Positions 1,424 through 20,367 of a DNA stretch of 24,000 nt are shown in pieces. How positions within the stretch are numbered: the stretch's first letter is position 1; every line of letters begins with the position of its first letter. Origin of the DNA: an uncultured Peptostreptococcaceae bacterium (GTDB lineage Bacteria > Bacillota > Clostridia > Peptostreptococcales > Peptostreptococcaceae); assembly GCA_942492135.1 (NCBI GenBank), contig CALODI010000010.1, positions 96,400 to 120,399 on the forward strand. The letters run 5' to 3'. The translations under genes were made by a program, and so were the position numbers. The notes beneath the pieces are model-generated. The model was not told the DNA's origin. It was given only the letters and a program-made list of their open reading frames with translations, and searched no databases.

Positions 1424-3199
1424 ATGAAAAAACTTATGACAGGTAATGAAGCTATTGCTAGAGGATTTTATGAAGCAGGTGGAAGTATAGCTTGTGCTTA
1501 TCCGGGAACTCCATCTACTGAGGTACTTGAAAATGTAGCTTTATATAAAGATATATATTCTGAATGGGCTCCAAATGAGAAGGTAGCGCTTGAAGTTGCT
1601 ATAGGATCATCTATAGCAGGAGCTAGATCTTTATCTGCTATGAAGCATGTTGGAGTTAACGTTGCAGCAGATCCTCTAATGACTTTTGGTTACACTGGTG
1701 TTAATGGAGGAATGGTATTAGTATCTGCAGATGATCCTGGAATGCATTCATCTCAAAATGAGCAGGACAACAGATATTATGCTAAATTTGCTAAGATTGC
1801 AATGATAGAGCCTAGTGATTCACAAGAGGCAAAGGATTTCATGAAGGATGCTATGGAAATATCAGAAAAATTTGATGTACCTGTTTTATATAGAGTTACA
1901 ACTAGAATATGTCATTCTAAAACTTTAGTTGAATTTGGAGAAAGGGAAGAAGTTGGAATAAAGCCTTATGAGAGAAATACAGCTAAGTTTGTTGCAACTC
2001 CAGGTAATGGTAGAAAGTTACATGTTGTAGTTGAAGATAAATTAAAGAAAATGGAAGAGTTTAGTAATGAAACTCATTTAAATAGAGTAGAGTGGAACGA
2101 TAAAAAGGTGGGAGTTATAACTTCTGGTATATCTTATCAATATGCTAAAGAGGTATTTGGAGATAATGTTTCTTATCTTAAATTAGGATTTACTTATCCA
2201 CTTCCGTTTGAAAAAATAGAAAATTTTGCTAAAGAAGTAGAAACTTTATATGTAATAGAAGAACTTGAGCCATTTATAGAGGAACAATTAAAGGCTAGAG
2301 GAATCGACTGTATAGGAAAAGAAAAAATATCTAATTTAGGAGAGCTGAATCCTGATATAATAGCAAGTTCTCTTTTAGGTACAGAAAGTGAAGTTGCAGC
2401 TGCTGTTGCTGAGCTTCAAGAAGATGTAATAAATAGACCTCCAACATTATGCGCAGGATGTCCACATAGAGGATTCTTCTATACTTTATCTAAGAAAAAA
2501 AATGTAATGATTACAGGAGATATAGGATGCTATACTCTAGGATCAGCAGAACCACTTAATGCAATGGATACATGTATTTGTATGGGAGCATCTATAAGTG
2601 CTGGCCATGGAGCTCAAAAGGCATTTAATTTCCATAATGTAGATAAGAGAGTAGTGAGTGTTATAGGAGATTCAACATTCTTCCATACAGGAATATTAAG
2701 CTTAATAGATGTTGTATATAACAAAGGTAATTCCGTAACTGTAATTTTAGATAATAGAATAACTGGTATGACAGGACACCAACAAAACCCAGGAACAGGA
2801 TATACTTTAATGGGAGAAAAGACTAATCAAATAGATATACCAACTATGTGTAAAGCGATAGGAGTTAAGAATATAACTGTTGTAAATCCACTTGATTTAA
2901 AGGCTAATGAAGAAGCTTTAAACAATGCTCTTGCATGTGATGAACCATCAGTAATAATAACTCAATGGCCTTGTGTTCTTAAAAAATTCTCTCAAGAAGA
3001 TAAAGAGAGATTTGACTGCAAACCTAAGTCTTATGAGGTTAAAGAAGATAAGTGTAAACAGTGTAAGGTATGCTTAAAATCAGGATGTCCAGCAATATCA
3101 TTTGATGAATATGCTAAGATAGATAAAAATATGTGTGTTGGATGTAGTGTATGTGCTCAAGTATGTCCATTTGATGCTATAGAAAAGGTTGGTGAATAA
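1424..3199 (+). CDS. iorA: indolepyruvate:ferredoxin oxidoreductase, alpha subunit (TPP-binding, two C-terminal 4Fe-4S motifs)
   Basis: 591 aa. N-terminal MTGNEAIARG...GYPGTPSTE pyruvate:ferredoxin oxidoreductase-like domain, TPP motif GDIGCYTLG...GDSTFFHTG, and C-terminal CKQCKVCLKSGCP and CVGCSVCAQVCP ferredoxin motifs. Confidence 0.85.
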   Translation: MKKLMTGNEAIARGFYEAGGSIACAYPGTPSTEVLENVALYKDIYSEWAPNEKVALEVAIGSSIAGARSLSAMKHVGVNVAADPLMTFGYTGVNGGMVLVSADDPGMHSSQNEQDNRYYAKFAKIAMIEPSDSQEAKDFMKDAMEISEKFDVPVLYRVTTRICHSKTLVEFGEREEVGIKPYERNTAKFVATPGNGRKLHVVVEDKLKKMEEFSNETHLNRVEWNDKKVGVITSGISYQYAKEVFGDNVSYLKLGFTYPLPFEKIENFAKEVETLYVIEELEPFIEEQLKARGIDCIGKEKISNLGELNPDIIASSLLGTESEVAAAVAELQEDVINRPPTLCAGCPHRGFFYTLSKKKNVMITGDIGCYTLGSAEPLNAMDTCICMGASISAGHGAQKAFNFHNVDKRVVSVIGDSTFFHTGILSLIDVVYNKGNSVTVILDNRITGMTGHQQNPGTGYTLMGEKTNQIDIPTMCKAIGVKNITVVNPLDLKANEEALNNALACDEPSVIITQWPCVLKKFSQEDKERFDCKPKSYEVKEDKCKQCKVCLKSGCPAISFDEYAKIDKNMCVGCSVCAQVCPFDAIEKVGE

Positions 3200-3200
3200 T

Positions 3201-3797
3201 ATGTGTAAGGTAAACAATGTTTTATTAGTAGGAGTTGGAGGACAAGGAATAATACTAGCTTCAAAGGTATTATCAAGTGGATTAATAGACTCAGGCTATG
3301 ATGTTAAAATGTCTGAGGTTCATGGTATGGCTCAAAGAGGTGGAAGTGTTACAACTCAAGTAAGATATGGAGAAAAAGTATATTCACCTATAATAGGAAA
3401 AGGTCAAGCTGATATAATTGTTGCATTTGAAAGAGTAGAGGCTTTAAGATGGTTAGAGTATTTAAAGCCAGGTGGAAAGATTGTAATAAATGATTACGCT
3501 ATTCCATCAGCAACTGTTTTATCAGGAAAAGAAGCATATCCAGAAAATATAATTGAAAAGATAGAAGCTAAGTATGATGATGTATCAGTTATAGATGCAG
3601 CTAACGAAGCTATAGAACTTGGAAATATAAAAGCTCAAAATATAATAATGCTTGGTGGACTTATTAAGTCACTGGGAATTGAAGAAATAGATTGGGATAA
3701 GGCATTAAAAGATAATGTTAAAGAAAAATTCGTAGAGTTAAACATGAAGGCTATTAAAAAAGGTCTTGAAAGTGGATTAAAAGAGAAAGCATTATAG
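3201..3797 (+). CDS. iorB: indolepyruvate:ferredoxin oxidoreductase, beta subunit
   Basis: The track ORF starts at TTG 3189. ATG 3201 (MCKVNNVLLVGVGGQGI...) is preferred because GGTG lies 6 nt upstream. Small gamma-domain-like subunit with GVGGQG and HGMAQRGGSV motifs, placed directly after the iorA stop (3197-3199). Confidence 0.8.
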   Translation: MCKVNNVLLVGVGGQGIILASKVLSSGLIDSGYDVKMSEVHGMAQRGGSVTTQVRYGEKVYSPIIGKGQADIIVAFERVEALRWLEYLKPGGKIVINDYAIPSATVLSGKEAYPENIIEKIEAKYDDVSVIDAANEAIELGNIKAQNIIMLGGLIKSLGIEEIDWDKALKDNVKEKFVELNMKAIKKGLESGLKEKAL

Positions 3798-3810
3798 AAT
3801 TATATATAAA

Positions 3811-3846
3811 TTGTGTGGCTTTATAAAGGTCACACAATTTATTTCT
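3811..3846 (+). terminator. rho-independent terminator or attenuator after iorB
   Basis: ttgtgtg (3811-3817) pairs with cacacaa (3831-3837), followed by tttatttct. Confidence 0.5.
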
Positions 3847-3875
3847 ATACAGACAAAATAGAGAGGGGCTTTTAT

Positions 3876-5198
3876 ATGGCAAGCTTTAATGAGGCAAAAA
3901 CTTGTGATATTTTGGATAAAAGCAAGGTCGACAAAATGATGAAATACAGGTGGATTGTATGGGGAGTACTTGCGTTTGCATATATTATAGTATTTTTTCA
4001 TAGATTAGCACCTGGAGTTGTTAAGGATGATTTGATAAATGAATTTAATATTTCAGGAACTACATTTGCAAATTTAGGAGGTATGTATTTTTACGCTTAT
4101 ATGATAATGCAAATTCCAGCTGGAATGTTAGCAGATTCATTAGGTGCTAGAAAGACTGTATCTATAGGGGTTTTATTATCGGGAATAGGGTCTATTTTAT
4201 TTGGAATGGCTCCTACTATATTTTGGGCATTTGCAGGAAGGTTACTTGTTGGTGTAGGGGTATCTGTTGTATTCGTACCGATACTTAAGATACAGTCTGT
4301 TTGGTTTAAGGAAAGTGAATTTGGTATAATGTCTGGTATTACTTCTTTTGCAGGGAATTTAGGTGGAATAATAGCTCAAACTCCTCTTGCTCTACTTGTT
4401 GCAGCTATAACTTGGAGAAGTTCATTCGTTGTTATGGGTGTTTTTTCTATAATAATAAGTGTACTTTGTTATATGATAGTTAGAAATGATCCTAAAGATA
4501 TGGGATATCCATCTATAGCTGAGATAGAAGGTAAAGGTATAAAGCATGTTAATAAAACTAAGGTGAATATGAAAAAGGCAGTTATACAGGTTATGCTTAA
4601 TCCTGGAACTTGGCCGGGATTCTTTATATTTGCAGGATGTTTTGGTGCATTTGTTTCATTGACTGGAGCATGGGGAAATGGGTATATAACGGATGTATAT
4701 AATGTATCTAAGATACAAGCTTCTAATTATATGATACTTCCTGTTTTAGGACTAGCTATTGGAAGTATATTTATTGGAGTTATTTCTGATAAGATGAGAA
4801 AAAGAAAGACTCCTATGATGATGTTTGGAACTGTTTATTTACTGTGTTGGGCTACTATTGCTTTTGGAGGAAGACTTGATACTAATGTCTTAAAGGTTGT
4901 GTTGTTTACGTTAGGTTTTACTTGTTCTACATTTGTACTTGGATGGGCTTGTGCAAAAGAGGTAAACCAACCAGAAATAGCGGGTATATCAACGTCTATT
5001 GTTAATATAGGAGGGATTTTTGGAGCTGCTATTATGCCATCTATACTTGGAGGAATTTTTGATAAATATGGAGCTACTTTAGTTAGTGTTGACCTTTATG
5101 GTAAGGCATTTATGTATTGCTTTTTGAGTGCTCTTGTAGGGTATGTGTTTGTATTTTTGGTTAAGGAAACTAATTGTAGGAATATATATTCTAAGTGA
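3876..5198 (+). CDS. MFS transporter (12-TM type, anion/organic-acid permease-like)
   Basis: The track ORF begins at GTG 3813, inside the terminator hairpin. ATG 3876 (MASFNEAKT...) has RBS gagagggg at 3861-3868. The sequence is highly hydrophobic with a typical MFS loop motif (GMLADSLGARKT). Confidence 0.8.
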   Translation: MASFNEAKTCDILDKSKVDKMMKYRWIVWGVLAFAYIIVFFHRLAPGVVKDDLINEFNISGTTFANLGGMYFYAYMIMQIPAGMLADSLGARKTVSIGVLLSGIGSILFGMAPTIFWAFAGRLLVGVGVSVVFVPILKIQSVWFKESEFGIMSGITSFAGNLGGIIAQTPLALLVAAITWRSSFVVMGVFSIIISVLCYMIVRNDPKDMGYPSIAEIEGKGIKHVNKTKVNMKKAVIQVMLNPGTWPGFFIFAGCFGAFVSLTGAWGNGYITDVYNVSKIQASNYMILPVLGLAIGSIFIGVISDKMRKRKTPMMMFGTVYLLCWATIAFGGRLDTNVLKVVLFTLGFTCSTFVLGWACAKEVNQPEIAGISTSIVNIGGIFGAAIMPSILGGIFDKYGATLVSVDLYGKAFMYCFLSALVGYVFVFLVKETNCRNIYSK

Positions 5199-5231
5199 TT
5201 TTTTTAAGAAGATTATATGGTGGTTAAGCCC

Positions 5232-5432
5232 AAAATAAGGCTTATTAAAATACCGTGAATGTGTTAAATGTTTTTAATAAAACTAAGTATTACATCTTAT
5301 TGAATATCCTAAAAGTTCTAAACTCCCGTTGGTCAGACAACGAACTTTCTTAACGGATATTCAAAAGATGCAATACAAGTTTTATACAAAAATATTTAAA
5401 TCATTCACTAACATTTTAATAAGCCTTATTTT
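5232..5432 (+). repeat. long-hairpin repeat, copy A (about 200 bp imperfect palindrome followed by a T-run)
   Basis: The left arm aaaataaggcttattaaaataccgtgaatg... is complementary to the right arm ...cattcactaacattttaataagccttatttt over about 70 bp per arm. Apical region: cctaaaagttctaaactcccgttggtcagacaacgaactttcttaacgg. Homologous copies lie at 10688-10883 and 12244-12452. Confidence 0.8.
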
Positions 5433-5524
5433 TTTAGTTAGGTACTTAGATGTTTGTGAATACAGATTGAAATTTACCAACCTCAAATTTGAGAAAAATC
5501 TTTGAAAGTATTGAAAAACAGAGG

Positions 5525-5554
5525 TTTACAAAGGATGTTTTTTAGAGTTATAAT
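5525..5554 (+). promoter_or_regulatory. candidate sigma-A promoter driving the omega-RNA/iscB transcript
   Basis: TTTACA (5525-5530), 18-nt spacer, TATAAT (5549-5554). Confidence 0.45.
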
Positions 5555-5559
5555 TATAT

Positions 5560-5845
5560 GTGAAGAGGCATTCTACTCTCTTTAACTGTAACATGAGATG
5601 TATGTCAATAACCTACCGCTTACAACCTAAAGGTTGTTGAAGTGGGGGCTTGTAAAAGCTCTTATTGTCTAGACTAAGCCTTAATTGGCTACATTAGAAT
5701 AGTTATGATAACTTTGTATGATACCCTAGTACATTTTGTTATCAAGGCTCTGTAAACAGCTTTCATGGGAGGAAGCAGTCAACCTTATGTAAGAAGCTAT
5801 TCTAATATTGTCTAAGGGTAACTACTCTGAAAGGAGGAATACTTT
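5560..5845 (+). ncRNA. candidate omega-RNA (IscB guide/scaffold RNA); boundaries approximate
   Basis: A stretch of about 285 nt with no ORF immediately 5' of iscB, where IscB omega-RNAs are encoded. Nested helices are visible: attagaatag (5692-5701) with ctattctaat (5797-5806); gataac/gttatc hairpin (about 5705-5745); caacc-taaa-ggttg; gctt-gtaa-aagc; ctg-taaa-cag. Confidence 0.5.
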
Positions 5846-7165
5846 ATCTTAGTATTCGTAATCAATAAGAATGGCAATCCTTTAATGCCATGTAAACAAT
5901 CAAAAGCTAGAAAACTATTGAAGCAAAATAAAGCTAAAATAATAAATTATAAACCATTTACCATACAACTTTTATATGGTTGTAGTGGATACAAGCAACC
6001 TATAGAAATAGGAATAGATAGTGGATCTAAATATATAGGAATAGCTATTACAAGTGAAGATAAAGTATTGTCTAAAGGAATTATTCAGCTTAGAACTGAT
6101 GTAAAAGAACTTCTAATTACTCGTAGAATACTTAGGAGAAGTAGAAGGAATCGCAAAACTCGTTATAGAAGATGCAAATTCAAATATAAAACTACTAGAA
6201 AATATAATCCTAAAAAGAAAAAGTGGGTTAAGCATAAGTTTTCTTTTAAAAGTAATCGCATTGAAGAATGGTTACCACCTTCAATACAAAGTCGAATAGA
6301 TAATCAAATACTTTGGATTAATAAGTTTATAAAACTTGTACCTAATCCTAAAGTAATTATTGAGTTAGGCAAATTTGATGTCCAAAAGATAATTAATCCA
6401 AATATTACAGGTGAACAATATCAACAAGGAAAATCCTATGGATTCTACAATTTTAGATATTATGTGTTTGCTAGAGATAATTACAAATGTCAAATTTGTA
6501 AAGGTAAAAGTAAAGATGATATATTACAAACACATCATATAATTCAGCGAAAAGATGGAGGCTCTGATAGAGCTGAAAACTTGGCTACAGTATGTATGAC
6601 TTGCCATTCGGATTTTCATGCTGGCAAGATAAATTATAAATTTAAAAAACCTAAGCAGTATAAAGAAACTACTTTTATGAATATACTTAGAAGGAAAATA
6701 CTCAAAAGACTTGATTGTGATGTTACCTACGGTAATATTACAACATCAAATAGAAAAGCCTTAGAATTGGATAAAACACATTATAATGATGCAATTGCTA
6801 TTAGTGGAATTGTAAATATAAAAGATAATTCTAATGTTATCTTTTATATAAAACAGTTCAGAAAGAAAAAAAGATCTTTGCATGAATCTACTGCTCGAAA
6901 GGGTAGAAAAACAAAGAATACAATTTCTAAAAGAAATGAGAAAAATACTAAATTTTCAAAGGGGTTCTACCTTAATGATAAGGTAAAAGTCTTTAAAAAA
7001 GTAGGGTTTATAAGTGGCTTTTGTAAAGGTGGAGTTTATATAAAAGATATAGAAGGCAACTATATAACAATGTCTGGAAAGAATTATAAACAAGTAAGCT
7101 TTAAAAATATAGAAGTTATAAACCATAATAATAATTGGCAATTTATACAAAGTATAAGTGCATAG
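5846..7165 (+). CDS. iscB: IscB-type RNA-guided nuclease (PLMP, split RuvC with inserted HNH, C-terminal beta-rich domain)
   Basis: Motifs seen: (I)LVFVINKNGNPLMPC...PFTIQL (PLMP domain), GIDSGSKYIG (RuvC-I Asp), RRSRRNRKTRYRR (Arg-rich bridge helix), VIIELGKFD (RuvC-II Glu), CQIC...HHIIQRKDGGSDRAENLATVCMTCHSDFH (HNH) and HYNDAIAI (RuvC-III). The start is set at ATC 5846, 8 nt after AAGGAGG (5831-5837). The first ATG at 5885 would remove the conserved N-terminal strand and has no RBS. Confidence 0.85.
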   Translation: MLVFVINKNGNPLMPCKQSKARKLLKQNKAKIINYKPFTIQLLYGCSGYKQPIEIGIDSGSKYIGIAITSEDKVLSKGIIQLRTDVKELLITRRILRRSRRNRKTRYRRCKFKYKTTRKYNPKKKKWVKHKFSFKSNRIEEWLPPSIQSRIDNQILWINKFIKLVPNPKVIIELGKFDVQKIINPNITGEQYQQGKSYGFYNFRYYVFARDNYKCQICKGKSKDDILQTHHIIQRKDGGSDRAENLATVCMTCHSDFHAGKINYKFKKPKQYKETTFMNILRRKILKRLDCDVTYGNITTSNRKALELDKTHYNDAIAISGIVNIKDNSNVIFYIKQFRKKKRSLHESTARKGRKTKNTISKRNEKNTKFSKGFYLNDKVKVFKKVGFISGFCKGGVYIKDIEGNYITMSGKNYKQVSFKNIEVINHNNNWQFIQSISA

Positions 7166-7233
7166 AAATTCAGCCCACCACCTATTTTATTGAGGCTGGA
7201 GACGTAGTGATAATATAGGCTAACTATTAGAAG

Positions 7234-7259
7234 AAAAGGACTTTTTATAAGTCTTTTTT
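7234..7259 (+). terminator. weak terminator-like hairpin downstream of iscB
   Basis: gactt (7238-7242) pairs with aagtc (7248-7252), flanked by an A-run and a T-run (tctttttt). Confidence 0.3.
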
Positions 7260-7366
7260 GTGTGTGAGGTATTTTGCTGAGCCGATGGGTTGAAAGAAAA
7301 CTTCTCGCCTAAATAATGGGATAATAAGTTATAAGCAAGGACGTTTTTGATGACAAAAGTACCTAA

Positions 7367-7489
7367 AGTAAGCTGATGAAAGGTGTTGGAATGGAACGAG
7401 AGATTATGAGTAAAGGTATTATAATAGTACGTTATGCTGATGATAGTTCGTCACGAAGTAGGAGCCAATCAACTAGAATGGTTGTTTGA
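7367..7489 (+). pseudogene. fragment of a group II intron/retroelement reverse transcriptase (YADD motif region)
   Basis: A short frame reads ...EREIMSKGIIIVRYADDSS... with RYADD at 7430-7444. There is no start or full-length ORF, and the flanks are stop-rich. GTGTG at 7261 resembles a group II 5' end, but this is not compelling. Confidence 0.4.
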
Positions 7490-7834
7490 AGATAGCTATG
7501 CTATACAGATGATGCCTATGGAGGGTATACCACAAAACACAAATAAACCTAAAGAATTAAAGTGAGGTATTAAGGAACATGATAAATAAAAGAAATGTTA
7601 TAGATATAATTTCTAAAGAAACGCAAGGGAAAAGATATAAATCACATAGATATTGTCATGATGTGATAAGCTCTTCTGCAATAGAATATGAAGAAGAGTG
7701 AGAGGTTGTTTGGAAAAAATTGGTGAAACAACTAAACATCAAAAGCCAAGTGTGTTGATTATGAAAAATTTTCTATAAAGATTATCAGCACACAACTTCC
7801 TTATAAATTGAATTAATGATAATTTAGTATATTT

Positions 7835-8212
7835 CTATCGTTTAGATGTTTCTGCATGTGTGAAATACAAAATAATATATGCTATTAATGCAGAAAAAAG
7901 TTGATTATATACAGCGTTTTCACTTGTTCCAAAGAATCTTTTCGCATTTAGATTTTGTTTTATAAATCTAAAAAAAGTCTCCACTTTCCAACGTTCTTTA
8001 TAAATATTGGCAATAGTTTCTTCAACTTGTGATGGTATCGTTTGAGTTACATTTAAAGCTAGATGAAGTTTTATGCCTGATTTTTCCCTCTTAAATTTAG
8101 CCCATTTGATACGGTTTTTTCCTACTGTAACAGTAGTAGAATCAATAGCTAATAAATCTTTAGGAAGATTCAAAGCTCTTTTTGTTGCACGATTACATTT
8201 GTCTGAAAGCAT
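7835..8212 (-). pseudogene. IS4-family (DDE_Tnp_1) transposase remnant, N-terminally truncated and internally deleted
   Basis: The 125-aa ORF contains LAIDSTT (first DDE Asp region) joined almost directly to YKERWKVETFFRFIK, which matches the Y-2-R-3-E-6-K signature. The segment carrying the second Asp is missing. Confidence 0.6.
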
Positions 8213-8232
8213 ATGAAAAAGCTTTTTGGTAA

Positions 8233-8391
8233 TTTGATGATCTATTGAACAATGATGAAGGTTTTATATTTGGGAAAATAGGTGATAAGTACATCACAAA
8301 ATTACAAACAGAGGACGGTCATATATTAATTATTGGAGGAGCTGGAAGTGGTAAAAGTTCATGTATGGCAATTTTAACTCTCTTAAACTGA
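8233..8391 (+). pseudogene. N-terminal fragment of a VirD4/TraG-like type IV coupling protein (Walker A)
   Basis: The frame reads FDDLLNNDEGFIFGKIGDKYITKLQTEDGHILIIGGAGSGKSSCMAILTLLN then stops. This pattern (GxxxGK, about 15 aa, H-hydrophobic run, G-GSGKS) is typical of conjugative coupling ATPases. Only about 52 codons remain. Confidence 0.45.
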
Positions 8392-8512
8392 ACAAGTCCT
8401 GTATTTGTACCAGAAAATGTTGTATTATTGATATAAGTAAAAGAAAATATATTAAGCAAGTATATTATATGTATTAGGAAAAACAAAAGAGAGATCTTAG
8501 AAAGGAAAAATT

Positions 8513-10591
8513 ATGATTCAAAATATATGTGATAAAAGAAAGTCTTTAATCCTTGTAGTAGATGATTCTAAATTAATTCGATTTACATTTAGGAATTTTT
8601 TAGAGAATGAAGGTTATGAGGTTATTGAGGCTGAAGATGGCATCGCGGCTCTTTCTCTATTTGCAAAACTAAAGCCCGATATCGTTCTAATGGATTATGT
8701 AATGCCAGAGGTAGATGGTGTTACTGCCTGTACTCAATTACAGGAATTACCTAATGGGAAGTCTACTCCTGTAATTATGGTTACCTCTCTTGAAGATGAA
8801 AACTCTGTAAACCTTGCTTTTGAGGCTGGTGCTACTGATTATATTAGTAAGCCAATCAACTGGGCTGTTTTACGCCAACGTCTAAGACGTTTAATACGTG
8901 CAAGACATACAGAGATAATACTTGATCAAAGTGAATCATTTGCGCGTTCTATAATCAACCATGCAATCGAGGGAATTATTACTATCGATATTAATGGAAT
9001 AGTCAGATATATTAATCCTGCAGCTGAACAAATTTTTGGCTATATGCCTAGTGAGATAATAGGAGAAAACATTAATATGATTATTCCAGAACTTTCTTAT
9101 AGAGATTACGATAATTTTGATATTAATGATAAATTTATACATATGACCAAGGAAATAATTGGCCAGCGAAAGGATACCTCCACATTATCTATTGACCTTA
9201 CAGTAAGTAAGTTTTATGTAGAGGAAAAATATTTTTTTACTATTATCCTTCGTGATATTACGGAACAAAAACGTTATGAGGAAATGATCAGGCATCAAGC
9301 TTTTTACGATTCTTTAACCAATCTACCTAATCGACTTTTATTAAAAGAACGTATTGAGCTTGAAATTTCTCGTGCTAAACATACTGGCCAGAAGGTGGCA
9401 GTAATGTTTCTTGATTTAGATAGATTTAAGCTTATTAATGATACCCTTGGACACGATATCGGAGATAAAGTACTGAAAGAAATCGCCAAGAGACTAAAAA
9501 GTTGTGTACGTGAAGACGATATCACTTCTCGGATAGGAGGTGACGAATTTGTAATTTTACTACCTGGAATAACTCATGAAGAAAACGTAGGTAGAATTGC
9601 TAATAAAATCCTTAATACTATCAAGCAACCGTTAATAATTGACAATCACGAACTGTATCTCACTATTAGCATTGGAATTACTATTTGTCCCAATGATGGT
9701 GAAGATGATGAAGTGTTACTGACAAATGCTGACATTGCTATGTATCGGGCTAAAGAAAAGGGTAAAAATAATTTCCAGCTATATACACCATCTTTGAATG
9801 CCAAAGCTCTTGAACGATTAGAACTGGAAAATAGTTTGCGCCGCGCTCTAGAATATAAAGAATTTGTAGTTTATTACCAGCCCAAAGTAAACACTAAAAC
9901 TGAGAAAGTAACTGGAATGGAAGCCTTGATACGCTGGCAACATCCCCAATGGGGGTTAGTTCCTCCACAAAAATTTATTCCTTTAGCTGAAGAAACTGGG
10001 TTGATTGTACCTATTGGCGAATGGGTATTACATACTGCTTGTGCCCAAAATAAAGCCTTACAAAACGCTGGATTCCCTCCTTTGACTGTGGCCGTTAATC
10101 TTTCGGTAAGGCAATTTGAGTTACAAGACTTAACAAAAATGGTCTTAAAGACATTGAAAGAAACTGGGCTAGAACCACAATACTTAGAATTAGAAATTAC
10201 AGAAAGTATAGCTATGCAGAATGTAAAACATACACTGGATACGATTAGTAAATTAAAAGCGATGGGAGTTAAGTTTTCCATAGATGATTTCGGTACTGGA
10301 TATTCTTCTTTAAGTCAATTAAGTAGTTTTTCTGTAAATAAATTGAAAATTGACAAGTCTTTTATAAGTAAGATTACTGAAGAAAAAGGTAATTCAATAA
10401 TTGCTTCAACAGTCTTAGCTTTAGGAAAAAGCCTTGAACTAGGGGTAGTTGCTGAAGGCGTTGAAAATGAAGAACAGGCTGATTTCTGTAAGGAAAATAA
10501 TTGTGACGAAATGCAGGGTTATTTTTTTGGTAAACCTATGTCTAACGAAAATTTTGAGAAGTTTTATTGTCAAAAACTCCAAGAAAGTTAA
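8513..10591 (+). CDS. response-regulator receiver-PAS-GGDEF-EAL protein (c-di-GMP turnover)
   Basis: 692 aa. REC domain (LVVDDS...DIVLMDYVMPEVDG...KP), PAS domain (IINHAIEGIITIDINGIVRYINPAAEQIFGY), GGDEF domain (RIGGDEFVILL, with RxxD-like context), and EAL domain (EALIRW, ELEITES, DDFGTGYSS, KIDKSF, EGVE, QGY). Confidence 0.9.
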   Translation: MIQNICDKRKSLILVVDDSKLIRFTFRNFLENEGYEVIEAEDGIAALSLFAKLKPDIVLMDYVMPEVDGVTACTQLQELPNGKSTPVIMVTSLEDENSVNLAFEAGATDYISKPINWAVLRQRLRRLIRARHTEIILDQSESFARSIINHAIEGIITIDINGIVRYINPAAEQIFGYMPSEIIGENINMIIPELSYRDYDNFDINDKFIHMTKEIIGQRKDTSTLSIDLTVSKFYVEEKYFFTIILRDITEQKRYEEMIRHQAFYDSLTNLPNRLLLKERIELEISRAKHTGQKVAVMFLDLDRFKLINDTLGHDIGDKVLKEIAKRLKSCVREDDITSRIGGDEFVILLPGITHEENVGRIANKILNTIKQPLIIDNHELYLTISIGITICPNDGEDDEVLLTNADIAMYRAKEKGKNNFQLYTPSLNAKALERLELENSLRRALEYKEFVVYYQPKVNTKTEKVTGMEALIRWQHPQWGLVPPQKFIPLAEETGLIVPIGEWVLHTACAQNKALQNAGFPPLTVAVNLSVRQFELQDLTKMVLKTLKETGLEPQYLELEITESIAMQNVKHTLDTISKLKAMGVKFSIDDFGTGYSSLSQLSSFSVNKLKIDKSFISKITEEKGNSIIASTVLALGKSLELGVVAEGVENEEQADFCKENNCDEMQGYFFGKPMSNENFEKFYCQKLQES

Positions 10592-10687
10592 TTACCTAGA
10601 TTTCGTACAAATGTAATTATTTATTCACTATAAAATACCAATTGATTAAATCTCTAATTTGAAAAAACTATAGGTCTTAATCCCAAA

Positions 10688-10883
10688 ACAAATGACATTA
10701 AAATACCGCTAATGTGGTAAATATTTTTAATAAAACTAAGAATTACATCTTATTGAATCTCCTAAAAGTTCTGAACTCCCTCGAGGTCAAACAACGAACT
10801 TTCTTAACGGATATTCAAACGCTGTAATTCAAGTTTTATACAAAAATATTTAAAGCATTCGCTAACATTTTGATGCCATTTGT
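10688..10883 (+). repeat. long-hairpin repeat, copy B (inside the IS1380-like element)
   Basis: Near-colinear with copy A (...attaaaataccgctaatgtgg...tcctaaaagttctgaactccctcgaggtcaaacaacgaactttcttaacggatattcaaa...cattcgctaacattttgatg...), followed by tttgttttttt. Confidence 0.8.
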
Positions 10884-11018
10884 TTTTTTAGCATGTTTCT
10901 TAGATATGAAATGGATTTAAATATATGTTATTTTCAAAAAAGACAAAAAGAAACAAAGGCAATTAATTCATTACCATCATTTGTAATAAACGTTCTGTTT
11001 TATTTCTTATCTAAATTA

Positions 11019-12243: not shown

Positions 12244-12452
12244 AATATTAAAACTGTCTATACAAATGTTAGTGAATGCTTTTAGATATTTTGACTAATA
12301 TAACTTAGGTTTTATCGTTTAATATTCCGTTAAAAAATTTGAGTGTTTGACCGTAGGGAGTTCTCAAATTTTAGGACTATTAATAAGATAGAATCTTAGT
12401 TATATTCAAAATATCGTTGTATTCACGGTATTTTTATAGATAGTTTTTAATA
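12244..12452 (-). repeat. long-hairpin repeat, copy C (inverted relative to A and B; inside the IS1380-like element)
   Basis: The reverse complement reads ...ataaaaataccgtgaatacaacg...tcctaaaatttgagaactccctacggtcaaacactcaaattttttaacgg...cattcactaacattt.... It is more diverged, but arm complementarity is kept. Confidence 0.7.
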
Positions 12453-14000: not shown

Positions 14001-14369
14001 GTGAGAACACAAAAGTTTGTAGCTGTTATAGGTATTAATAAAGGTCATTTTCATAAAAATAATAAACATGAAAATAAAGAGGATATATATTTAAAGTGGC
14101 AGTCATTAGCTAAGAAAGATTATGAACTAAAAGGGGTGTATGTTTCTGCTAATATATCTAAAATAAAGACCATATATCATGAAAAGTGGGGTTGTCCATT
14201 AGGTGGAGAAGATACTTATGAAATAAGAGGAGTATGTAATCCTACATTTTCTGATTTAAATAAGTGGAAGGAGATTGTTTTAGATATTGTTAAAGAGTTA
14301 AAGTTATATTATGAGCAATCAAGTTGTAGTTTGGAATTTTGCGAGTGTGAGTTTTATTACTTAAAGTGA
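14001..14369 (+). CDS. hypothetical soluble protein, Cys-containing (WGCPLGG, CSLEFCECEF)
   Basis: 122-aa ORF with a GTG start preceded by ggtga. No family recognised. Confidence 0.4.
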   Translation: MRTQKFVAVIGINKGHFHKNNKHENKEDIYLKWQSLAKKDYELKGVYVSANISKIKTIYHEKWGCPLGGEDTYEIRGVCNPTFSDLNKWKEIVLDIVKELKLYYEQSSCSLEFCECEFYYLK

Positions 14370-14444
14370 TAAGACCTATTAATATATACTTTTCTATATA
14401 TTAATAGTAAAATAAGATATAGTAAAGCTACGGGAGTTGATATT

Positions 14445-14780
14445 ATGATGAGTGGATTTATATTTGCGTTAGTTGGAGTCATAAGTATTGCTTATGCTTT
14501 TTCTGTTAAAAAGTCTGAAAGAAGACAAAAGAAGCTTTTGGAAGTTTTGAAGAAAAATGATGAGGGTGAAATTATATTTGGGAGCAAGAAATTTAAAAGT
14601 GAAGAAGGATATTTTTCTTACCAATTTTACAGTTACTTAAATTCGGGTATATTTGCATTAATATATGGGTTTGCAGTTAATACTTTTAATTTATATAAAA
14701 GAGGTTTGTGGGTACTTATATCTTTTTTAATCCTCATATATATAAATCAATTGATTTATAAAAAATTCGCTTCATGCTAA
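14445..14780 (+). CDS. hypothetical small membrane protein (3 TM)
   Basis: 111-aa ORF with RBS gggag 9 nt upstream. An N-terminal TM helix is followed by a charged linker and two C-terminal TM helices. Confidence 0.5.
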   Translation: MMSGFIFALVGVISIAYAFSVKKSERRQKKLLEVLKKNDEGEIIFGSKKFKSEEGYFSYQFYSYLNSGIFALIYGFAVNTFNLYKRGLWVLISFLILIYINQLIYKKFASC

Positions 14781-14921
14781 CGCATGGCTCATGTCGACAA
14801 CGAGTTCTACGGGCTCCGTTGCTCAAATTAGTTGTAAATTTAGTGATTTAATCAACGTTATTCATAGATTTAAAATTTTATAAGTTTATATTAAGTAAAA
14901 AACATAAAGATATGTAATTTG

Positions 14922-14957
14922 AATCTTTCTTGGATAATCCAAGAAAGATTTTTTTTA
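14922..14957 (+). terminator. strong rho-independent terminator
   Basis: aatctttcttgga (14922-14934) pairs perfectly with tccaagaaagatt (14938-14950) and runs into tttttttt. Confidence 0.8.
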
Positions 14958-15041
14958 TTGTATTCAAAATAGTTAAAGCATTAATCAAAAAGTAAAATCA
15001 TATACATATATAGCAAGTCAGTTTACAAGGGGGTAAGTTAA

Positions 15042-17765
15042 ATGGATGATAGTAAAAAAATGAAACTTGCTGATATTTTGGCATCTAAAGGATTGTCAAT
15101 TAATTATCAGTATGGAGGAAGAGCTCCAGAGGAGATGGTTGATAGAGAAGTCAAAAAAGAACCAACTCCAAGAGCTAAGAGGTTAAGAGATATATTCTAT
15201 AATACATTATCAACTGCTAATATGGAGTTTCCTTATTGGTACAACCGTAAGTTTAATGAGCTTGAAGGCGAGATTACAGTAGTTAGAAGAGCTCTTGCTT
15301 TAAAAGAGGCATTTTCAAGACTTACACCAAATATTGTTCCTGGTGAAAAGTTAGTTATGCAAAAAACTTATAACTATAGGGGATCTTTTCCTATGCCATG
15401 GCTTTCCGAAAGCTTCTTCGTAGCCAAAGAAAGTGAACTATACAAAGCTGCTCTTGAATCAGGAAGTGCAAGTGCTGGCGAGTTAAGTGAATTCGGACAT
15501 GGTGGAGGAAATGTTACAAAGAGTTTTGGAAATGTAGTTTCTATTGCTGGTAAGTTTGGAATGAGAAAAGAAGAAATTCCTGTTCTTTTAAAAGTTGCTA
15601 ATGAGTGGGTAGGAAGATCGGTTGAGGATTTAGGACATAAATACGAAAAGATGGTTCCAGATTACGAGGTTAAAGAAAATATAATGAGAAGCTTAGTTTG
15701 TATGTTTGACTCAGGATTTACTCTACCTCAAGGAAGAGAAGTAATAAACTATTATTATCCTCTTCAATATGGATTTGACAAAATTATAGAAATGGCTAAG
15801 GAATGTAAAGATGAGGTTGCTGGAAATGCAGATGGAGATGGAGTAGCAGGAATGGACAGACTTTATTTCTATGATGCTGTAATTCATATTATAGATGGTC
15901 TTCAAACTTGGATATTAAACTACGCAAAACATGCAAGAAGACTTGAAAAAATAGCTAAGAATGAAGCAGATAAAAAAGAGTATATGGATATAGCTGACTG
16001 CTTAGAAAACATAGCTCATAAACAGCCATCTACATTCAGAGAAGCACTTCAATTATCATACATCCTACATATTGCAGTTTTAAATGAAGATGCAATATCT
16101 GGATTATCAATAGGAAGATTAGGTCAAGTACTATATCCTTGGTATGAGCAAGAGATTGAGGCAGGAAAGATAACTAAGGAAGAAGTATTAGAACTTTTAG
16201 AATTATATAGAATAAAAATTACATGTATAGACTGTTTTGCATCAACAGGAGTTGTTGGAGGCGTTTTATCAGGAAACACATTTAATAACTTAAGTCTTGG
16301 AGGACTTACTCATGATGGACAGTCTGCTACTAATGACTTAGAAATGTTAATTGTTGAAGCTGGTATAACATGTGGAACACCTCAGCCTACTTTATCAGTT
16401 CTTTATGATGAGAAACTTCCAGAAAAGTTCTTATTAAAATGTGTAGAATGTGATAAAACTGGTGCAGGATATCCAGCATGGATGAACAATAGAGGTGGAA
16501 TAGAATTCATGATGAATCAATATTCACCTGAGGGAATGACTATTGAAGAAGCTAGATCATTTGCAATAGGAGGATGTCTTGAAACATCACCAGGATGTTG
16601 GAAGGATCTTAAGTTAAATGGTAAGAAATATAAAATACCTGGAGGAGCAGGTCAACCTACAAGCGTTGGAGTTCACTTTGTAGCAAATCCTAAGGTATTA
16701 GAGTTAGTACTTACTAATGGAGTAGATAAAAGAACAGGAATCAAAGTATTTGAGCCTCATAATAGAAAGCTTGAAACTTATGAAGAACTAGTTGATACAT
16801 TCAAGATGTATTATGAAAAAGCAGTTGACGTTTTAGCTAAAACTAACAATGTACAACATGATATATGGCGTAAGCAGAATATGTCTGTTGTAAACTCTTT
16901 CTTAAAACCAGATTGTTTAGCTAAAGGACAGCATATAGGTAATATGGGATATAGATATAATGCTACATTTAACGTTGAAAGCTGCGGAACTGTAACTATG
17001 GTAAACTCATTAGCTGGAATCAAAAAAGTTGTATACGATGATAAGAAGTTTACTCTTGAAGAATTAACGGATGCTATGACAAACAACTTTGGATTTAAAA
17101 ATGCTCTTGAAACAAGAAATTTCTCGATGATGGATCAAGAAAAAATAGATAATAGTGGTAAATACGATGATATATATGGAGAATGTTTAATGGCTCCTAA
17201 GTATGGTAATGACAATTCTTATGCAGATAATATACTTAAGGGATATGAAGATTGGTTCTGTGAAATGTCAAAGACTGCAATGTCACTTTATGCAAAACCT
17301 ATGTATGCTTGTCAAATATCAGTTTCAACTCATGGAGCACAAGGTGCTGCAACACTTGCTACACCTGATGGAAGACTTGCAGGAACAACATATTCAGATG
17401 GTTCAATGTCTGCTTATCCTGGAACTGATAAGAATGGACCATATGCTTTATTTGAATCAGCTACAGTTTGGGATCATTCAAATTCTCAAAACTCTCAGAT
17501 GAACATGAAGATTCATCCAAGTGCATTAAGAGGAGAGCAAGGAACTAAGCATTTATTAGATTTAACACGCTCATATATGAGAAAAGGTGGATTCCACATA
17601 CAATACAATATTGTAGACTCTAAGATATTAAAAGATGCACAAGAAAATCCTGATAGCTACAGAGATCTTATGGTAAGGGTTGCAGGGTTTACACAATACT
17701 GGTGTGAAATAGGTAAGCCTATTCAAGATGAAGTTATTTCAAGAACAGAATATGAAGGAGTGTAG
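15042..17765 (+). CDS. hpdB: 4-hydroxyphenylacetate decarboxylase, glycyl-radical (large) subunit
   Basis: 907 aa with RBS aaggggg. Glycyl-radical motif RVAGFTQYW (Gly882) and thiyl loop GGCLE (Cys512, Glu514). Ser353, His545 and Glu646 align at a uniform +9 offset with the residues recalled for the C. scatologenes enzyme (S344, C503, E505, H536, E637, G873). It is followed by a small Fe-S subunit gene. Confidence 0.85.
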
Positions 17766-17769
17766 AGAT

Positions 17770-18027
17770 ATGTTAAAACACAATGATTGTTTAAATTTTT
17801 CACCTATGGATGCTGCAAAGGGAATTTGTAGAGTTACAGGAAACGTAGTTAATATAGATTCTGATGTATGTGAAGCATTTGATCTGTGTCCTAAATGTAG
17901 AAATTGCTCTCACTTTAAAAACTCTGATAAAGATGAACTAGGAATGTGCACAGGTCTTGATAAAGATAACTGGACGTATGGAGATTTAAATGCTATAACA
18001 TGTAATGAACATGAGTTGGAAAAATAA
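17770..18027 (+). CDS. hpdC: 4-hydroxyphenylacetate decarboxylase small (gamma) subunit, Cys/His-rich Fe-S protein
   Basis: The track ORF starts at 17728 inside hpdB. ATG 17770 (MLKHNDCLNF...) lies 10 nt after GAAGGAG and 4 nt after the hpdB stop. It encodes 85 aa with an H-x2-C...C...C and CPKCRNC...C...C pattern. Confidence 0.8.
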   Translation: MLKHNDCLNFSPMDAAKGICRVTGNVVNIDSDVCEAFDLCPKCRNCSHFKNSDKDELGMCTGLDKDNWTYGDLNAITCNEHELEK

Positions 18028-18059
18028 TATAGCAACTAATTTGGAAGGATTGATATGGA

Positions 18060-19337
18060 ATGCTAGAGAACAGAGTAAGTGAAAAGGAAGCAAAACACCT
18101 AGGTTATATGGTAGTGCTTGCATCTTGGCTTGCAGTATTTTGTTTATTTGGTTATAGAGCTACTTTTTCTGTACTTCAAGGACCTATGGCAAAGGATCTG
18201 GGATGGAGTGCATCTAAATTAACTCTAGGTTATTCACTTATGATGAGCGTTTATGCAGTAACTGCATTCTTTAGTGGAATGATAATAGATAAATGGGGAA
18301 CTAAGCCTGCTTATTTTTTAGGTGCTTTAAGTGGTTCCTTAGGATTTCTGGTAACAAGCTTTGCCAAAACATATATGTCTTATTTGATTCCATATGCTGT
18401 ATTTGCAGGGATTGGAACTGGTATGCTTTGGGTATCGTCAACTGTATCGGTTAGAAAATGGTATGTAGGTAAGTCATATGCAACTATGTGGGGTATAGCT
18501 TTTATGGGAGCTCCTGTTGCACAGGTTGTACTAAGTCTTGGAGCTAAACAGGTTCTTGCAACTATGGACTGGAGATTTGCTATGAGAATATTATCTCTTG
18601 TAGTATTAATCGCTTTAATAATAGCTACTTGTGTTGCTAAGAAAAATCCTCAATACTATGGGCTTAAGCCTTTTGGTATGGACACAGTAAAAACTAAGAA
18701 AAATAATGTGAATGATAGAGAATGGAGTATAAAACAGGCATTTTCTACATTCCCTATATGGGGTGCTATAATAGCATTCTTGACTAGTATGGTTGCAGAG
18801 TTTTTAGTTTGGACTCAAATTGTAAAGTATTGGATGGCGGATTGTGATTTATCTTTATCTACAGCTACCAATCTTTATGTAGCAATAGGAATAGCTGGAA
18901 TACTTACAATGCCTTTAATGGGAGTTGTAGCAGATAAGATGGTTACAAAGTTAAACCATGAAACAAAGGGTAGAAAATATATGCTAATATTCGCGCCTTT
19001 AATGGGAGTTATAGCTTGTATTGCTTTGATGACAGGAAAAGGTGCAGTAACTCTTAGTATAGTATCTTGTATAATATTTGCTGTATACTGGGCTATCGAA
19101 CCTGGTGGAGTTGCAGGATATGCAGCATCTGTTTATGGAAATAAGACTTTCGGTAAGATATGGGGACTATCAACTCTTGTAGTTATGGGTATAGGACCAG
19201 CACTTGGAAGTTTTATGGGAGCTTATTTATATGACGTATCTGGAAGTTATTATAATTCACTAAAGTTTGCCATGGCATCATTCGCAGTATCTGCTATAGT
19301 GGCGATGCTTCTTCCATTATCTATAGATAAGGATTAA
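18060..19337 (+). CDS. MFS transporter embedded in the hpd operon (oxalate/formate-antiporter-like in general appearance)
   Basis: 425 aa, about 12 TM helices, with RBS ggaagga 10 nt upstream. It sits between hpdC and hpdA. Confidence 0.8.
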   Translation: MLENRVSEKEAKHLGYMVVLASWLAVFCLFGYRATFSVLQGPMAKDLGWSASKLTLGYSLMMSVYAVTAFFSGMIIDKWGTKPAYFLGALSGSLGFLVTSFAKTYMSYLIPYAVFAGIGTGMLWVSSTVSVRKWYVGKSYATMWGIAFMGAPVAQVVLSLGAKQVLATMDWRFAMRILSLVVLIALIIATCVAKKNPQYYGLKPFGMDTVKTKKNNVNDREWSIKQAFSTFPIWGAIIAFLTSMVAEFLVWTQIVKYWMADCDLSLSTATNLYVAIGIAGILTMPLMGVVADKMVTKLNHETKGRKYMLIFAPLMGVIACIALMTGKGAVTLSIVSCIIFAVYWAIEPGGVAGYAASVYGNKTFGKIWGLSTLVVMGIGPALGSFMGAYLYDVSGSYYNSLKFAMASFAVSAIVAMLLPLSIDKD

Positions 19338-19361
19338 AGTTAAACTAATTCAGAAACTATT

Positions 19362-19403
19362 AAGTTCTTATCTCCAGCCTTAAGAGGAAGGAGATAAGAA
19401 CTT
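19362..19403 (+). promoter_or_regulatory. 14-bp perfect hairpin between the MFS gene and hpdA (partial terminator, processing or stability element)
   Basis: aagttcttatctcc (19362-19375) pairs with ggagataagaactt (19390-19403) around a 14-nt loop. The tail ttagctttctg is only a weak U-tract. Confidence 0.5.
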
Positions 19404-19437
19404 TTAGCTTTCTGATAAATGAAATGAGGGATTTGAA

Positions 19438-20367
19438 ATGGATAAGGGTATAGTATTTGATATACAGAGTTTTTCAGTACATGATGGACCTGGATGTAGA
19501 ACTACGGTTTTTATGAATGGATGTCCTTTAAGATGTCAGTGGTGTGCAAACCCAGAAAGCTGGACTTTGAAGCCTCATATAATGTTTAGCGAAAGTAGCT
19601 GTAAATATAAAAAAGGATGTAGTATTTGTAAAGATTCATGTCCTCATGGAGCGCTTGAATTTGATGATATGCCGACATTGAATTGGAATATATGCAAAAG
19701 CTGTACTACATTTGAATGTAGTTTGAAGTGCTATTATGATGCATTTAAAGTATGTGGTAAAGAATACAGTGTTGATGAAATAATGAAAATACTAACTAGA
19801 GACTCTCATTCATGGAGTAGTGAAGGGGGGGTTACCTTTAGTGGAGGTGAGCCGTTACTTCAAAGTGAATTCTTGATTCAATTACTAAAAGAATGTAAAA
19901 ATAATTATATCCACACTGCAATTGAAACAACCGCATACAAAGATAATGAAACATTTTTAAATGTCATGGAGTATATAGATTTTGCATTTATAGATGTAAA
20001 ACATATCAACCGAGACATGCACAGAAAAAAGACTGGAGTATATAATGATATTATTTTAAACAACATTAGAACATTAAAGCAGAGTAAATGGAAGGGTAGA
20101 CTAATACTTAGGATGCCTGTTATAAGAGATTTTAATGACACATATCAAAATATAATTGATACCATCCAATTTATGAAAGAAAATGATTTGTTTGAAATAA
20201 ATATACTTCCATTTCATAGACTGGGAGAATCTAAGTGGAGACAACTAGGTAAAGAGTATAAATACAAGGATGAGGAGGGAACAGATTCTAAGAAGCTTGA
20301 AGAAATACAGGATTTGTTCTTAGAAAACCAAATAGCATGCTATATAGGAGATGACACCGCATTTTAA
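19438..20367 (+). CDS. hpdA: glycyl-radical enzyme activating enzyme (radical SAM) for the decarboxylase
   Basis: 309 aa. FSVHDGPGCRTTVFMNGCPLRCQWCANPES (CX3CX2C radical SAM motif) plus an inserted Cys-rich ferredoxin-like region (CKYKKGCSICKDSCP...CKSCTTFECSLKC). Confidence 0.85.
   Translation: MDKGIVFDIQSFSVHDGPGCRTTVFMNGCPLRCQWCANPESWTLKPHIMFSESSCKYKKGCSICKDSCPHGALEFDDMPTLNWNICKSCTTFECSLKCYYDAFKVCGKEYSVDEIMKILTRDSHSWSSEGGVTFSGGEPLLQSEFLIQLLKECKNNYIHTAIETTAYKDNETFLNVMEYIDFAFIDVKHINRDMHRKKTGVYNDIILNNIRTLKQSKWKGRLILRMPVIRDFNDTYQNIIDTIQFMKENDLFEINILPFHRLGESKWRQLGKEYKYKDEEGTDSKKLEEIQDLFLENQIACYIGDDTAF

Follow-up and report, generated by a model that had tools for sequence, protein, structure and literature searches.

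The window, by which we mean the whole 24,000-nucleotide stretch of DNA analysed here, comes from the genome of an uncultured Peptostreptococcaceae bacterium (G000) and carries on its forward strand a structured RNA of the HEARO family with an iscB gene immediately downstream (Table 1). A scan of the full window with Rfam covariance models returned a single match, to HEARO (RF02033), which covers model positions 1-211 of 211 and scores 98.8 bits (E = 1.7e-19) against a gathering score of 83 bits; many other HEARO matches score higher (110-166 bits), and the nearest relatives of the window copy score 91-96. The scaffold ends at 5825, and an RRXRR-HNH open reading frame starts on the same strand at 5846. 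HEARO was later identified as the IscB omega RNA (Meers et al., bioRxiv 10.1101/2023.03.14.532601), and its role as the IscB guide RNA rests on experiments and structures (the IscB structures matched here and Meers et al.). The initial annotation, made from the letters alone, had proposed an IscB omega-RNA scaffold beside the ORF, in a region free of coding sequence. Both points hold, as the full-length match lies above the cut-off and adjoins an intact iscB, and no ORF of at least 40 aa was found on the plus strand within 5560-5845.

Table 1. Features of the IscB locus and its CRISPR surroundings, in window coordinates.
Feature	Position	Strand	Basis and remarks
Type I-B CRISPR leader remnant	5471-5579	+	90%/81% identity to the two leaders on contig C82 of G002, 77% to G003
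Sigma-70-like promoter TTTACA-18-TATAAT	5525-5554	+	CRISPR leader promoter, 11/12; hexamers invariant in four leaders
Leader-proximal CRISPR repeat, first 24 nt	5580-5603	+	Differs at one position from nt 1-24 of the 30-nt G002 repeat
Predicted 16-nt guide GTAACATGAGATGTAT	5588-5603	+	Directly 5' of scaffold position 1; flanks variable in relatives
Omega-RNA scaffold, HEARO RF02033	5604-5825	+	98.8 bits against 83, covariation; 5604 is the transposon near end
Putative iscB ribosome-binding site AGGAGG	5832-5837	+	Sequence reading; motif and spacing repeated in relatives
iscB ORF, 439 codons	5846-7165	+	RRXRR and HNH, guided_IscB; ATC at the ancestral ATG position
Far-end subterminal part (AATTCA, CCACC, TTGAGG, GGAGAC blocks)	7166-7203	+	Aligns with the far ends of relatives
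Far terminus, degenerate or replaced	7204-7224	+	CTAAC (7220-7224) where relatives have TTAAA

The protein encoded by this ORF is an IscB, a putative nuclease with a split RuvC and an inserted HNH. Besides the Pfam domains RRXRR and HNH, it scores 324.5 bits with the NCBIfam equivalog guided_IscB (NF040563; cut-off 175) and matches solved IscB structures, and its catalytic motifs are intact: PLMP (residues 12-15), D58, E173, H230/H231, N245 and H312..D315 are all present. The reading frame, in turn, has no canonical start codon before the PLMP domain. The closest relatives begin with ATG TTA GTA TTC, and in the window a point change has turned the first of these codons into ATC (ATC TTA GTA TTC); initiation at the first ATG, at 5885, would cost 13 residues. 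An early reading, in which a 3-nt deletion had removed a TTG start, was dropped once closer relatives were seen to have ATG at the position of the window's ATC. ATC initiates translation very weakly in bacteria, and with this start IscB may be made at a very low level or not at all.

The nearest protein in a large collection is 68% identical (the relatives P0002 and P0003 span 64-68%), and the best matches in plasmid and phage collections reach at most 52%. IscB was not found in four sister genomes, nor did a 399-genome sample of the class contain a match at E <= 1e-80. Contigs classed as viral in IMG/VR (L090-L107), several of them 100-220 kb long, carry many of the IscB's closest relatives (55-61% identity), and this IscB clade may often travel in phages. 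Within G000, blastn found no second copy of the element; the only other IscB, 44% identical in protein, belongs to a second HEARO/IscB locus (L001, contig C35:266443-267686; 124.7 bits) whose upstream flank is unrelated.

The helices read from the sequence were judged against the Rfam HEARO alignment, an independent RNAalifold consensus and a repeat finder. The long-range helix, originally placed at 5692-5703 / 5795-5806, lies within 1 nt of a 12-bp helix at 5693-5704 / 5795-5806, which includes one G-U pair and contains a perfect 10-mer inverted repeat. Two local hairpins had been drawn inside it, one of which, gataac/gttatc (5707-5712 / 5738-5743), is the base of a conserved hairpin. The other, ctg-taaa-cag (5750-5759), finds no support as a local hairpin: in the family, UAAACAG hardly varies and stays unpaired, and the consensus partner of the CUG is a distal CAG at 5776-5778. 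The helices proposed upstream agree with the family consensus or with extensions in relatives: caataa/ttattg is HEARO helix P1 (5604-5611 / 5662-5669), gctt-gtaa-aagc (5647-5658) is a conserved hairpin, and caacc-taaa-ggttg (5624-5637) forms the tip of an extended hairpin of which several relatives have covarying versions.

Covariation across homologous loci, named in the initial annotation as a check on these helices, is extensive. In an alignment of 25 sequences (the window copy, the other G000 copy, nine loci found through their protein and 14 from the class sample), RNAalifold run without the Rfam structure predicted 37 pairs, 29 of which show compensatory double changes. Paired cells on this structure amount to 93%, where column shuffles give 74.6% and slid partners 30-41%, and none of 500 shuffles matched the observed values. 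The window copy keeps P1, the long-range helix and the hairpins; its U-U mismatch in P1 and the shifted register of one hairpin are common to, or near those of, its closest relatives. The folding z-score of the single sequence (-1.59) is not significant alone, and the centroid structure recovers the family helices. This modest score, together with a consensus scan that found no terminator-like site between scaffold and ORF, would be in keeping with a region that is only the 5' untranslated leader of the iscB mRNA, giving rise to no separate stable RNA in this strain. We attach almost no probability to that reading, since the family is an experimentally and structurally established IscB guide RNA, its covariation applies here, and the helices are kept. 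RNA and protein are ordinary members of known families: the segment at 5604-5825 is an ordinary omega-RNA scaffold of an IscB transposon, and only its insertion site is unusual.

What makes the site unusual becomes apparent upstream of the scaffold. The TTTACA-18-TATAAT element had been taken for a promoter dedicated to the omega RNA. As a promoter sequence it is real, matching 11 of the 12 consensus positions and being the best site in 5150-7500, a region in which promoter-like sites as a whole are not enriched (17 against 13.4 +/- 3.8 in shuffles). It is not dedicated, being the type I-B leader promoter that two sister species free of IscB also possess. Window positions 5471-5569 share 90% identity with the sequence that directly precedes a CRISPR array in G002, a genome of the same genus. 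There the leader occurs twice, once heading a 65-repeat array (90%) and once a 24-repeat array (81%), and this homology to array-heading leaders identifies the promoter region of the window as a CRISPR leader. Both promoter hexamers are unchanged in all four leaders, including those of the IscB-free genomes, and the leader alignment shows a conserved leader-repeat junction. A consensus promoter beside an omega RNA, then, need not belong to the element. Compared at 5560-5579 with G002 C82:31905-32005, the window leader is missing about 70 nt that are present in both G002 leaders, a deletion that leaves the promoter only about 25 nt from the first repeat. Just upstream of the leader, here (5224-5438) as in G002, lies a partly self-complementary repeat of about 215 bp, which recurs in the window at about 10677-10905 and 12264-12438 (-), has about 90 blastn matches genome-wide and is present in many copies in all five sister genomes.

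Synteny places the leader in a wider context. In G002, the POR genes before the leader match window positions 2667-3797 at 94%, and the DNA about 2.4 kb past the second array matches 14164-20366 at 88-91%. Between the two arrays lies a type I-B operon (cas6, a 567-aa ORF, cas7, cas5b, cas3, cas4, cas1b and cas2). With synteny on both sides, the window locus is orthologous in position to a CRISPR-cas locus of type I-B. G003, also of the same genus, is syntenic at about 87% identity up to window position 5567 and resumes at 7526; it keeps the promoter and has no IscB. The 173 bp that intervene in G003 do not align significantly with window 7150-7300 (local score 25, against 19.3 +/- 3.2 for shuffles), and this empty site fixes the left side of the insertion and not its far side.

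Several further differences mark this region. An MFS transporter gene (3813-5198) stands between the POR genes and the leader in G000 and G003 and is absent from that place in G002. The 8.5 kb from 5570 to about 14100, after which synteny is regained at 14164, stand where G002 has its type I-B CRISPR-cas locus of roughly 18 kb; they contain, besides the IscB element, fragments of an intron and of IS elements, a REC-PAS-GGDEF-EAL gene and an IS that encodes a DDE transposase. At 7236-7259, immediately beyond the IscB element, an A/T-rich hairpin that leads into a run of T has the look of a terminator and was not listed by the consensus scan. A group II intron reverse transcriptase is represented by two pieces at 7253-7445, with an RYADD motif near 7421-7445. 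The pieces match contigs C35 of G001 and C14 of G002, where they lie about 1.2 kb apart, which indicates that the intron copy in the window has an internal deletion.

Directly downstream of the leader, the window carries the beginning of the G002 repeat, and agreement with the leader-repeat junction of G002 extends to the few leader bases before 5580. Repeat nucleotide 24 is followed immediately by the omega-RNA scaffold, at the very point at which an intact G002 repeat continues with TTAAAT. Of the CRISPR-cas locus, only the shortened leader and these 24 nt of the first repeat survive in the window. No other copy of the repeat was found in G000 at up to 6 mismatches; 5000-9000 contains no further repeat and no spacer, and repeat remnants of the array were found neither elsewhere in the window nor elsewhere in the genome. 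Cas1 and other cas homologues are likewise absent from G000, with the exception of one weak match (26%), elsewhere on contig C10, to the Csa3-like ORF that comes first in the G002 locus.

The contiguity of leader, partial repeat and omega-RNA scaffold, all read in one direction, calls to mind a working CRISPR-associated IscB of the DelIscB kind, in which array transcripts would supply guides through an anti-repeat, and such CRISPR-associated systems do exist (PMC12660989). We consider it highly improbable that the window encodes one. Its single repeat is truncated and is accompanied by no spacer or second repeat within 5000-9000, and no inverted repeat arm of at least 8 nt involves 5580-5603, which leaves no anti-repeat. 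Moreover, the repeat belongs in the sister genome to a class 1 type I-B system, and the IscB relatives have ordinary unique flanks. The boundaries of those relatives point to the near end of a transposon at the repeat-scaffold junction.

Among 28 other HEARO loci, obtained in genome-based searches and in some cases from genomes with several copies, conservation starts exactly at GTCAAY in most, and the 24 nt that precede the scaffold are unique to each locus and show no relationship between loci. Viral relatives show the same boundary: an element present at two insertion sites (L093-95 and L096) has its near end fixed at the G of GTCAAT, and beyond its far end the two sites share TTAAA and then diverge. 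This agrees with a published layout in which a transposon end delimits HEARO, the guide lies outside the element and the TAM at its other end (Meers et al., bioRxiv 10.1101/2023.03.14.532601), as it does with the description of ISC transposons by Kapitonov et al. (PMC4810608). A guide of 16 nt is reported for IscB (PMC12660989). Since the boundary of the relatives lies at GTCAAY and is preceded by a unique flank, the guide in the window would be 5588-5603, which is to say CRISPR-repeat sequence, lying 28-44 nt downstream of the predicted transcription start.

This placement differs from the guide first proposed, the initial 16-20 nt of the transcript (gtgaagaggcattc...), as the guide of the family is the flank that touches GTCAAY. 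A search of the host genome with 5560-5579, the first 20 nt of the predicted transcript, returned no other match at up to 3 mismatches. The suggestion that a fixed, promoter-proximal guide argues for domestication falls together with the dedicated promoter and the transcript-start guide on which it was built, for the guide consists of insertion-site DNA, which is the rule for IscB transposons. Domestication of this IscB, with a promoter of its own and 5560-5579 as a fixed guide against a target chosen by the host, could account for a strong promoter 50 nt upstream of the scaffold, and a single copy with a degenerate far end and no TnpA found is what would be expected of an immobilised element. 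It is nonetheless very unlikely: both the promoter and 5560-5579 belong to a CRISPR leader that sister genomes without IscB share, the guide of the family lies elsewhere, 5560-5579 has no second match in the genome, and the change of ATG to ATC does not suggest selection for expression. The juxtaposition is a chance insertion of a transposon into a CRISPR repeat, not a domestication.

The insertion point itself provides the evidence for transposition. In 17 related insertions, the motif after the far end is TTAAA in 14, TTGAA in two and TTAAG in one, and these flanks suggest TTAAA as the TAM, with the proviso that TTAAA is also a common word in AT-rich DNA. On the iscB strand the motif reads TTAAA, which corresponds to TTTAA 5' of the left end as TnpA defines the strand. 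Because TTAAAT continues the repeat at the junction, an intact repeat carries both a guide match and the putative TAM. G002 contains 89 exact guide-plus-TTAAA sites. G000 itself holds no guide-plus-TTAAA target and no exact second guide site, its best candidate being a site with 1 mismatch followed by ATCCA rather than TTAAA. A search of metagenome contigs with the junction CATGAGATGTATGTCAAT gave eight matches, all in unrelated contexts and attributable to chance. The 28 genome-derived loci, with their unique flanks, do not suggest a preference of the clade for repeats, and the flanks of the viral relatives compared here differ as well.

Given that the element starts, to the base, at the junction and that an intact repeat continues there with TTAAA, we favour transposition over a random break. 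Our main reading, to which we give a probability of roughly 0.85, is that a non-autonomous IscB element of the IS200/IS605 family (ISC) transposed into the leader-proximal type I-B repeat, between nt 24 and 25. Deletion or illegitimate recombination between the array and a nearby IscB element might also have created the repeat-scaffold junction in a locus as heavily rearranged as this one, with its 70-nt leader deletion, lost array and cas genes, missing element terminus and the fragments of a group II intron and of IS elements downstream. We regard this as improbable, as the junction coincides to the nucleotide with the element boundary that multi-copy relatives define and also lies exactly 5' of TTAAA in the intact repeat, the motif after most related insertions, a combination that a random breakpoint would rarely produce.

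The transposed element, on our reading, has not remained whole. It spans about 5604 to 7203-7219. The far end of relatives reads GACTTCTTGC, followed after 8-10 nt by G|TTAAA, and neither motif occurs in the window, where the far end is recognisable up to GGAGAC (7198-7203) and the TTCTTGC block of the clade is absent. What follows the element is CTAACT and not the repeat remainder TTAAAT, so that the insertion is read from one junction only. A search of G000 for a Y1 TnpA (PF01797) gave no match. With the array and the cas operon gone, a degenerate far end, no TnpA found and ATG changed to ATC, the locus looks like a stranded, possibly decaying copy.

How the inserted element would work can be outlined from the sequence and from what is known of the family; where transcription begins, where the RNA ends and whether it is stable are in this outline all predictions, with a primary 5' end expected near 5560-5563, a processed one near 5586-5590 and a 3' end near 5825-5850. 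The element would have inserted just 5' of the TTAAA of the repeat, with iscB on the same strand as the repeat is given here. The leader promoter, the only strong one upstream, probably drives both the omega RNA and iscB, transcribing guide, scaffold and iscB as one RNA. IscB elements tend to share direction with upstream host transcription (Meers et al., bioRxiv 10.1101/2023.03.14.532601), and read-through from the leader into the scaffold and iscB would fit this reported co-direction. Trimming at the 5' end may then leave the 16-nt guide GTAACATGAGATGTAT, and the IscB-omega RNA complex would cut an uninterrupted site, that is, a guide match followed by TTAAA, as found in the intact repeats of the array family.

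These considerations yield a concrete prediction, namely a guide GTAACATGAGATGTAT and a TAM TTAAA that together match every repeat of the arrays of the sister species. It is tempting to speculate that IscB, by recognising every repeat of the array family, could spread through the array or shred it, that it may have helped to bring about the loss of the type I-B system, and that the locus captures the first step by which IscB becomes linked to CRISPR; we consider this extension unlikely. If it were true, transcription from the leader and a guide 5' end derived from the repeat would correspond to the proposed first step that ties IscB to arrays.

In relation to known systems, the RNA alone adds little to a well-studied family, and the value of the locus lies in its context. 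Compared with HEARO RF02033 of the OMEGA/ISC systems, the window RNA has the same position and strand relative to iscB, covarying helices, the GTCAAY start and a variable 5' flank as the putative guide; there is no difference in the RNA itself, and the window differs only by its insertion site. Like GstIscB/ISGst5 (Meers et al.) and the ISC transposons (Kapitonov et al. 2016), the element is non-autonomous and has a 5'-GT terminus; one transposon end delimits its omega RNA, and the other is adjoined by an AT-rich pentanucleotide, which is TTCAT in GstIscB and, on the iscB strand, TTAAA here. Unlike those elements, the window copy has no recognisable far terminus or adjacent motif, no TnpA was found, and its iscB starts with ATC.

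The CRISPR-associated IscB systems, exemplified by DelIscB, resemble the window in that the guide-RNA gene abuts a leader and a repeat and would be co-transcribed with them. As cited in PMC12660989, these systems combine spacer-containing arrays with an ncRNA that includes an anti-repeat (Altae-Tran et al. 2021), whereas the window has one truncated type I-B repeat, no spacer and no anti-repeat. Our limited literature search found no described IscB element that lies inside a repeat and uses the repeat as its guide. Chance insertion of IscB or TnpB transposons into or near CRISPR loci is an accepted idea and has been proposed as the first step towards class 2 effectors, and spurious juxtapositions have been reported (Koonin and Makarova 2019, PMC6452270). 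Some Tn7-like elements, too, are known to target CRISPR repeats (PMC11837452). In the window, unlike in the scenario of PMC6452270, there is no sign of selection for the juxtaposition, and the array and cas genes have been lost. The locus nevertheless shares with the cases described in both papers a mobile element with an RNA-guided nuclease inside a pre-existing class 1 CRISPR locus, and thereby offers a clean, datable instance of an IscB transposon within a class 1 CRISPR repeat, the type of chance event that evolutionary models assume at the origin of Cas9-type systems (PMC6452270).
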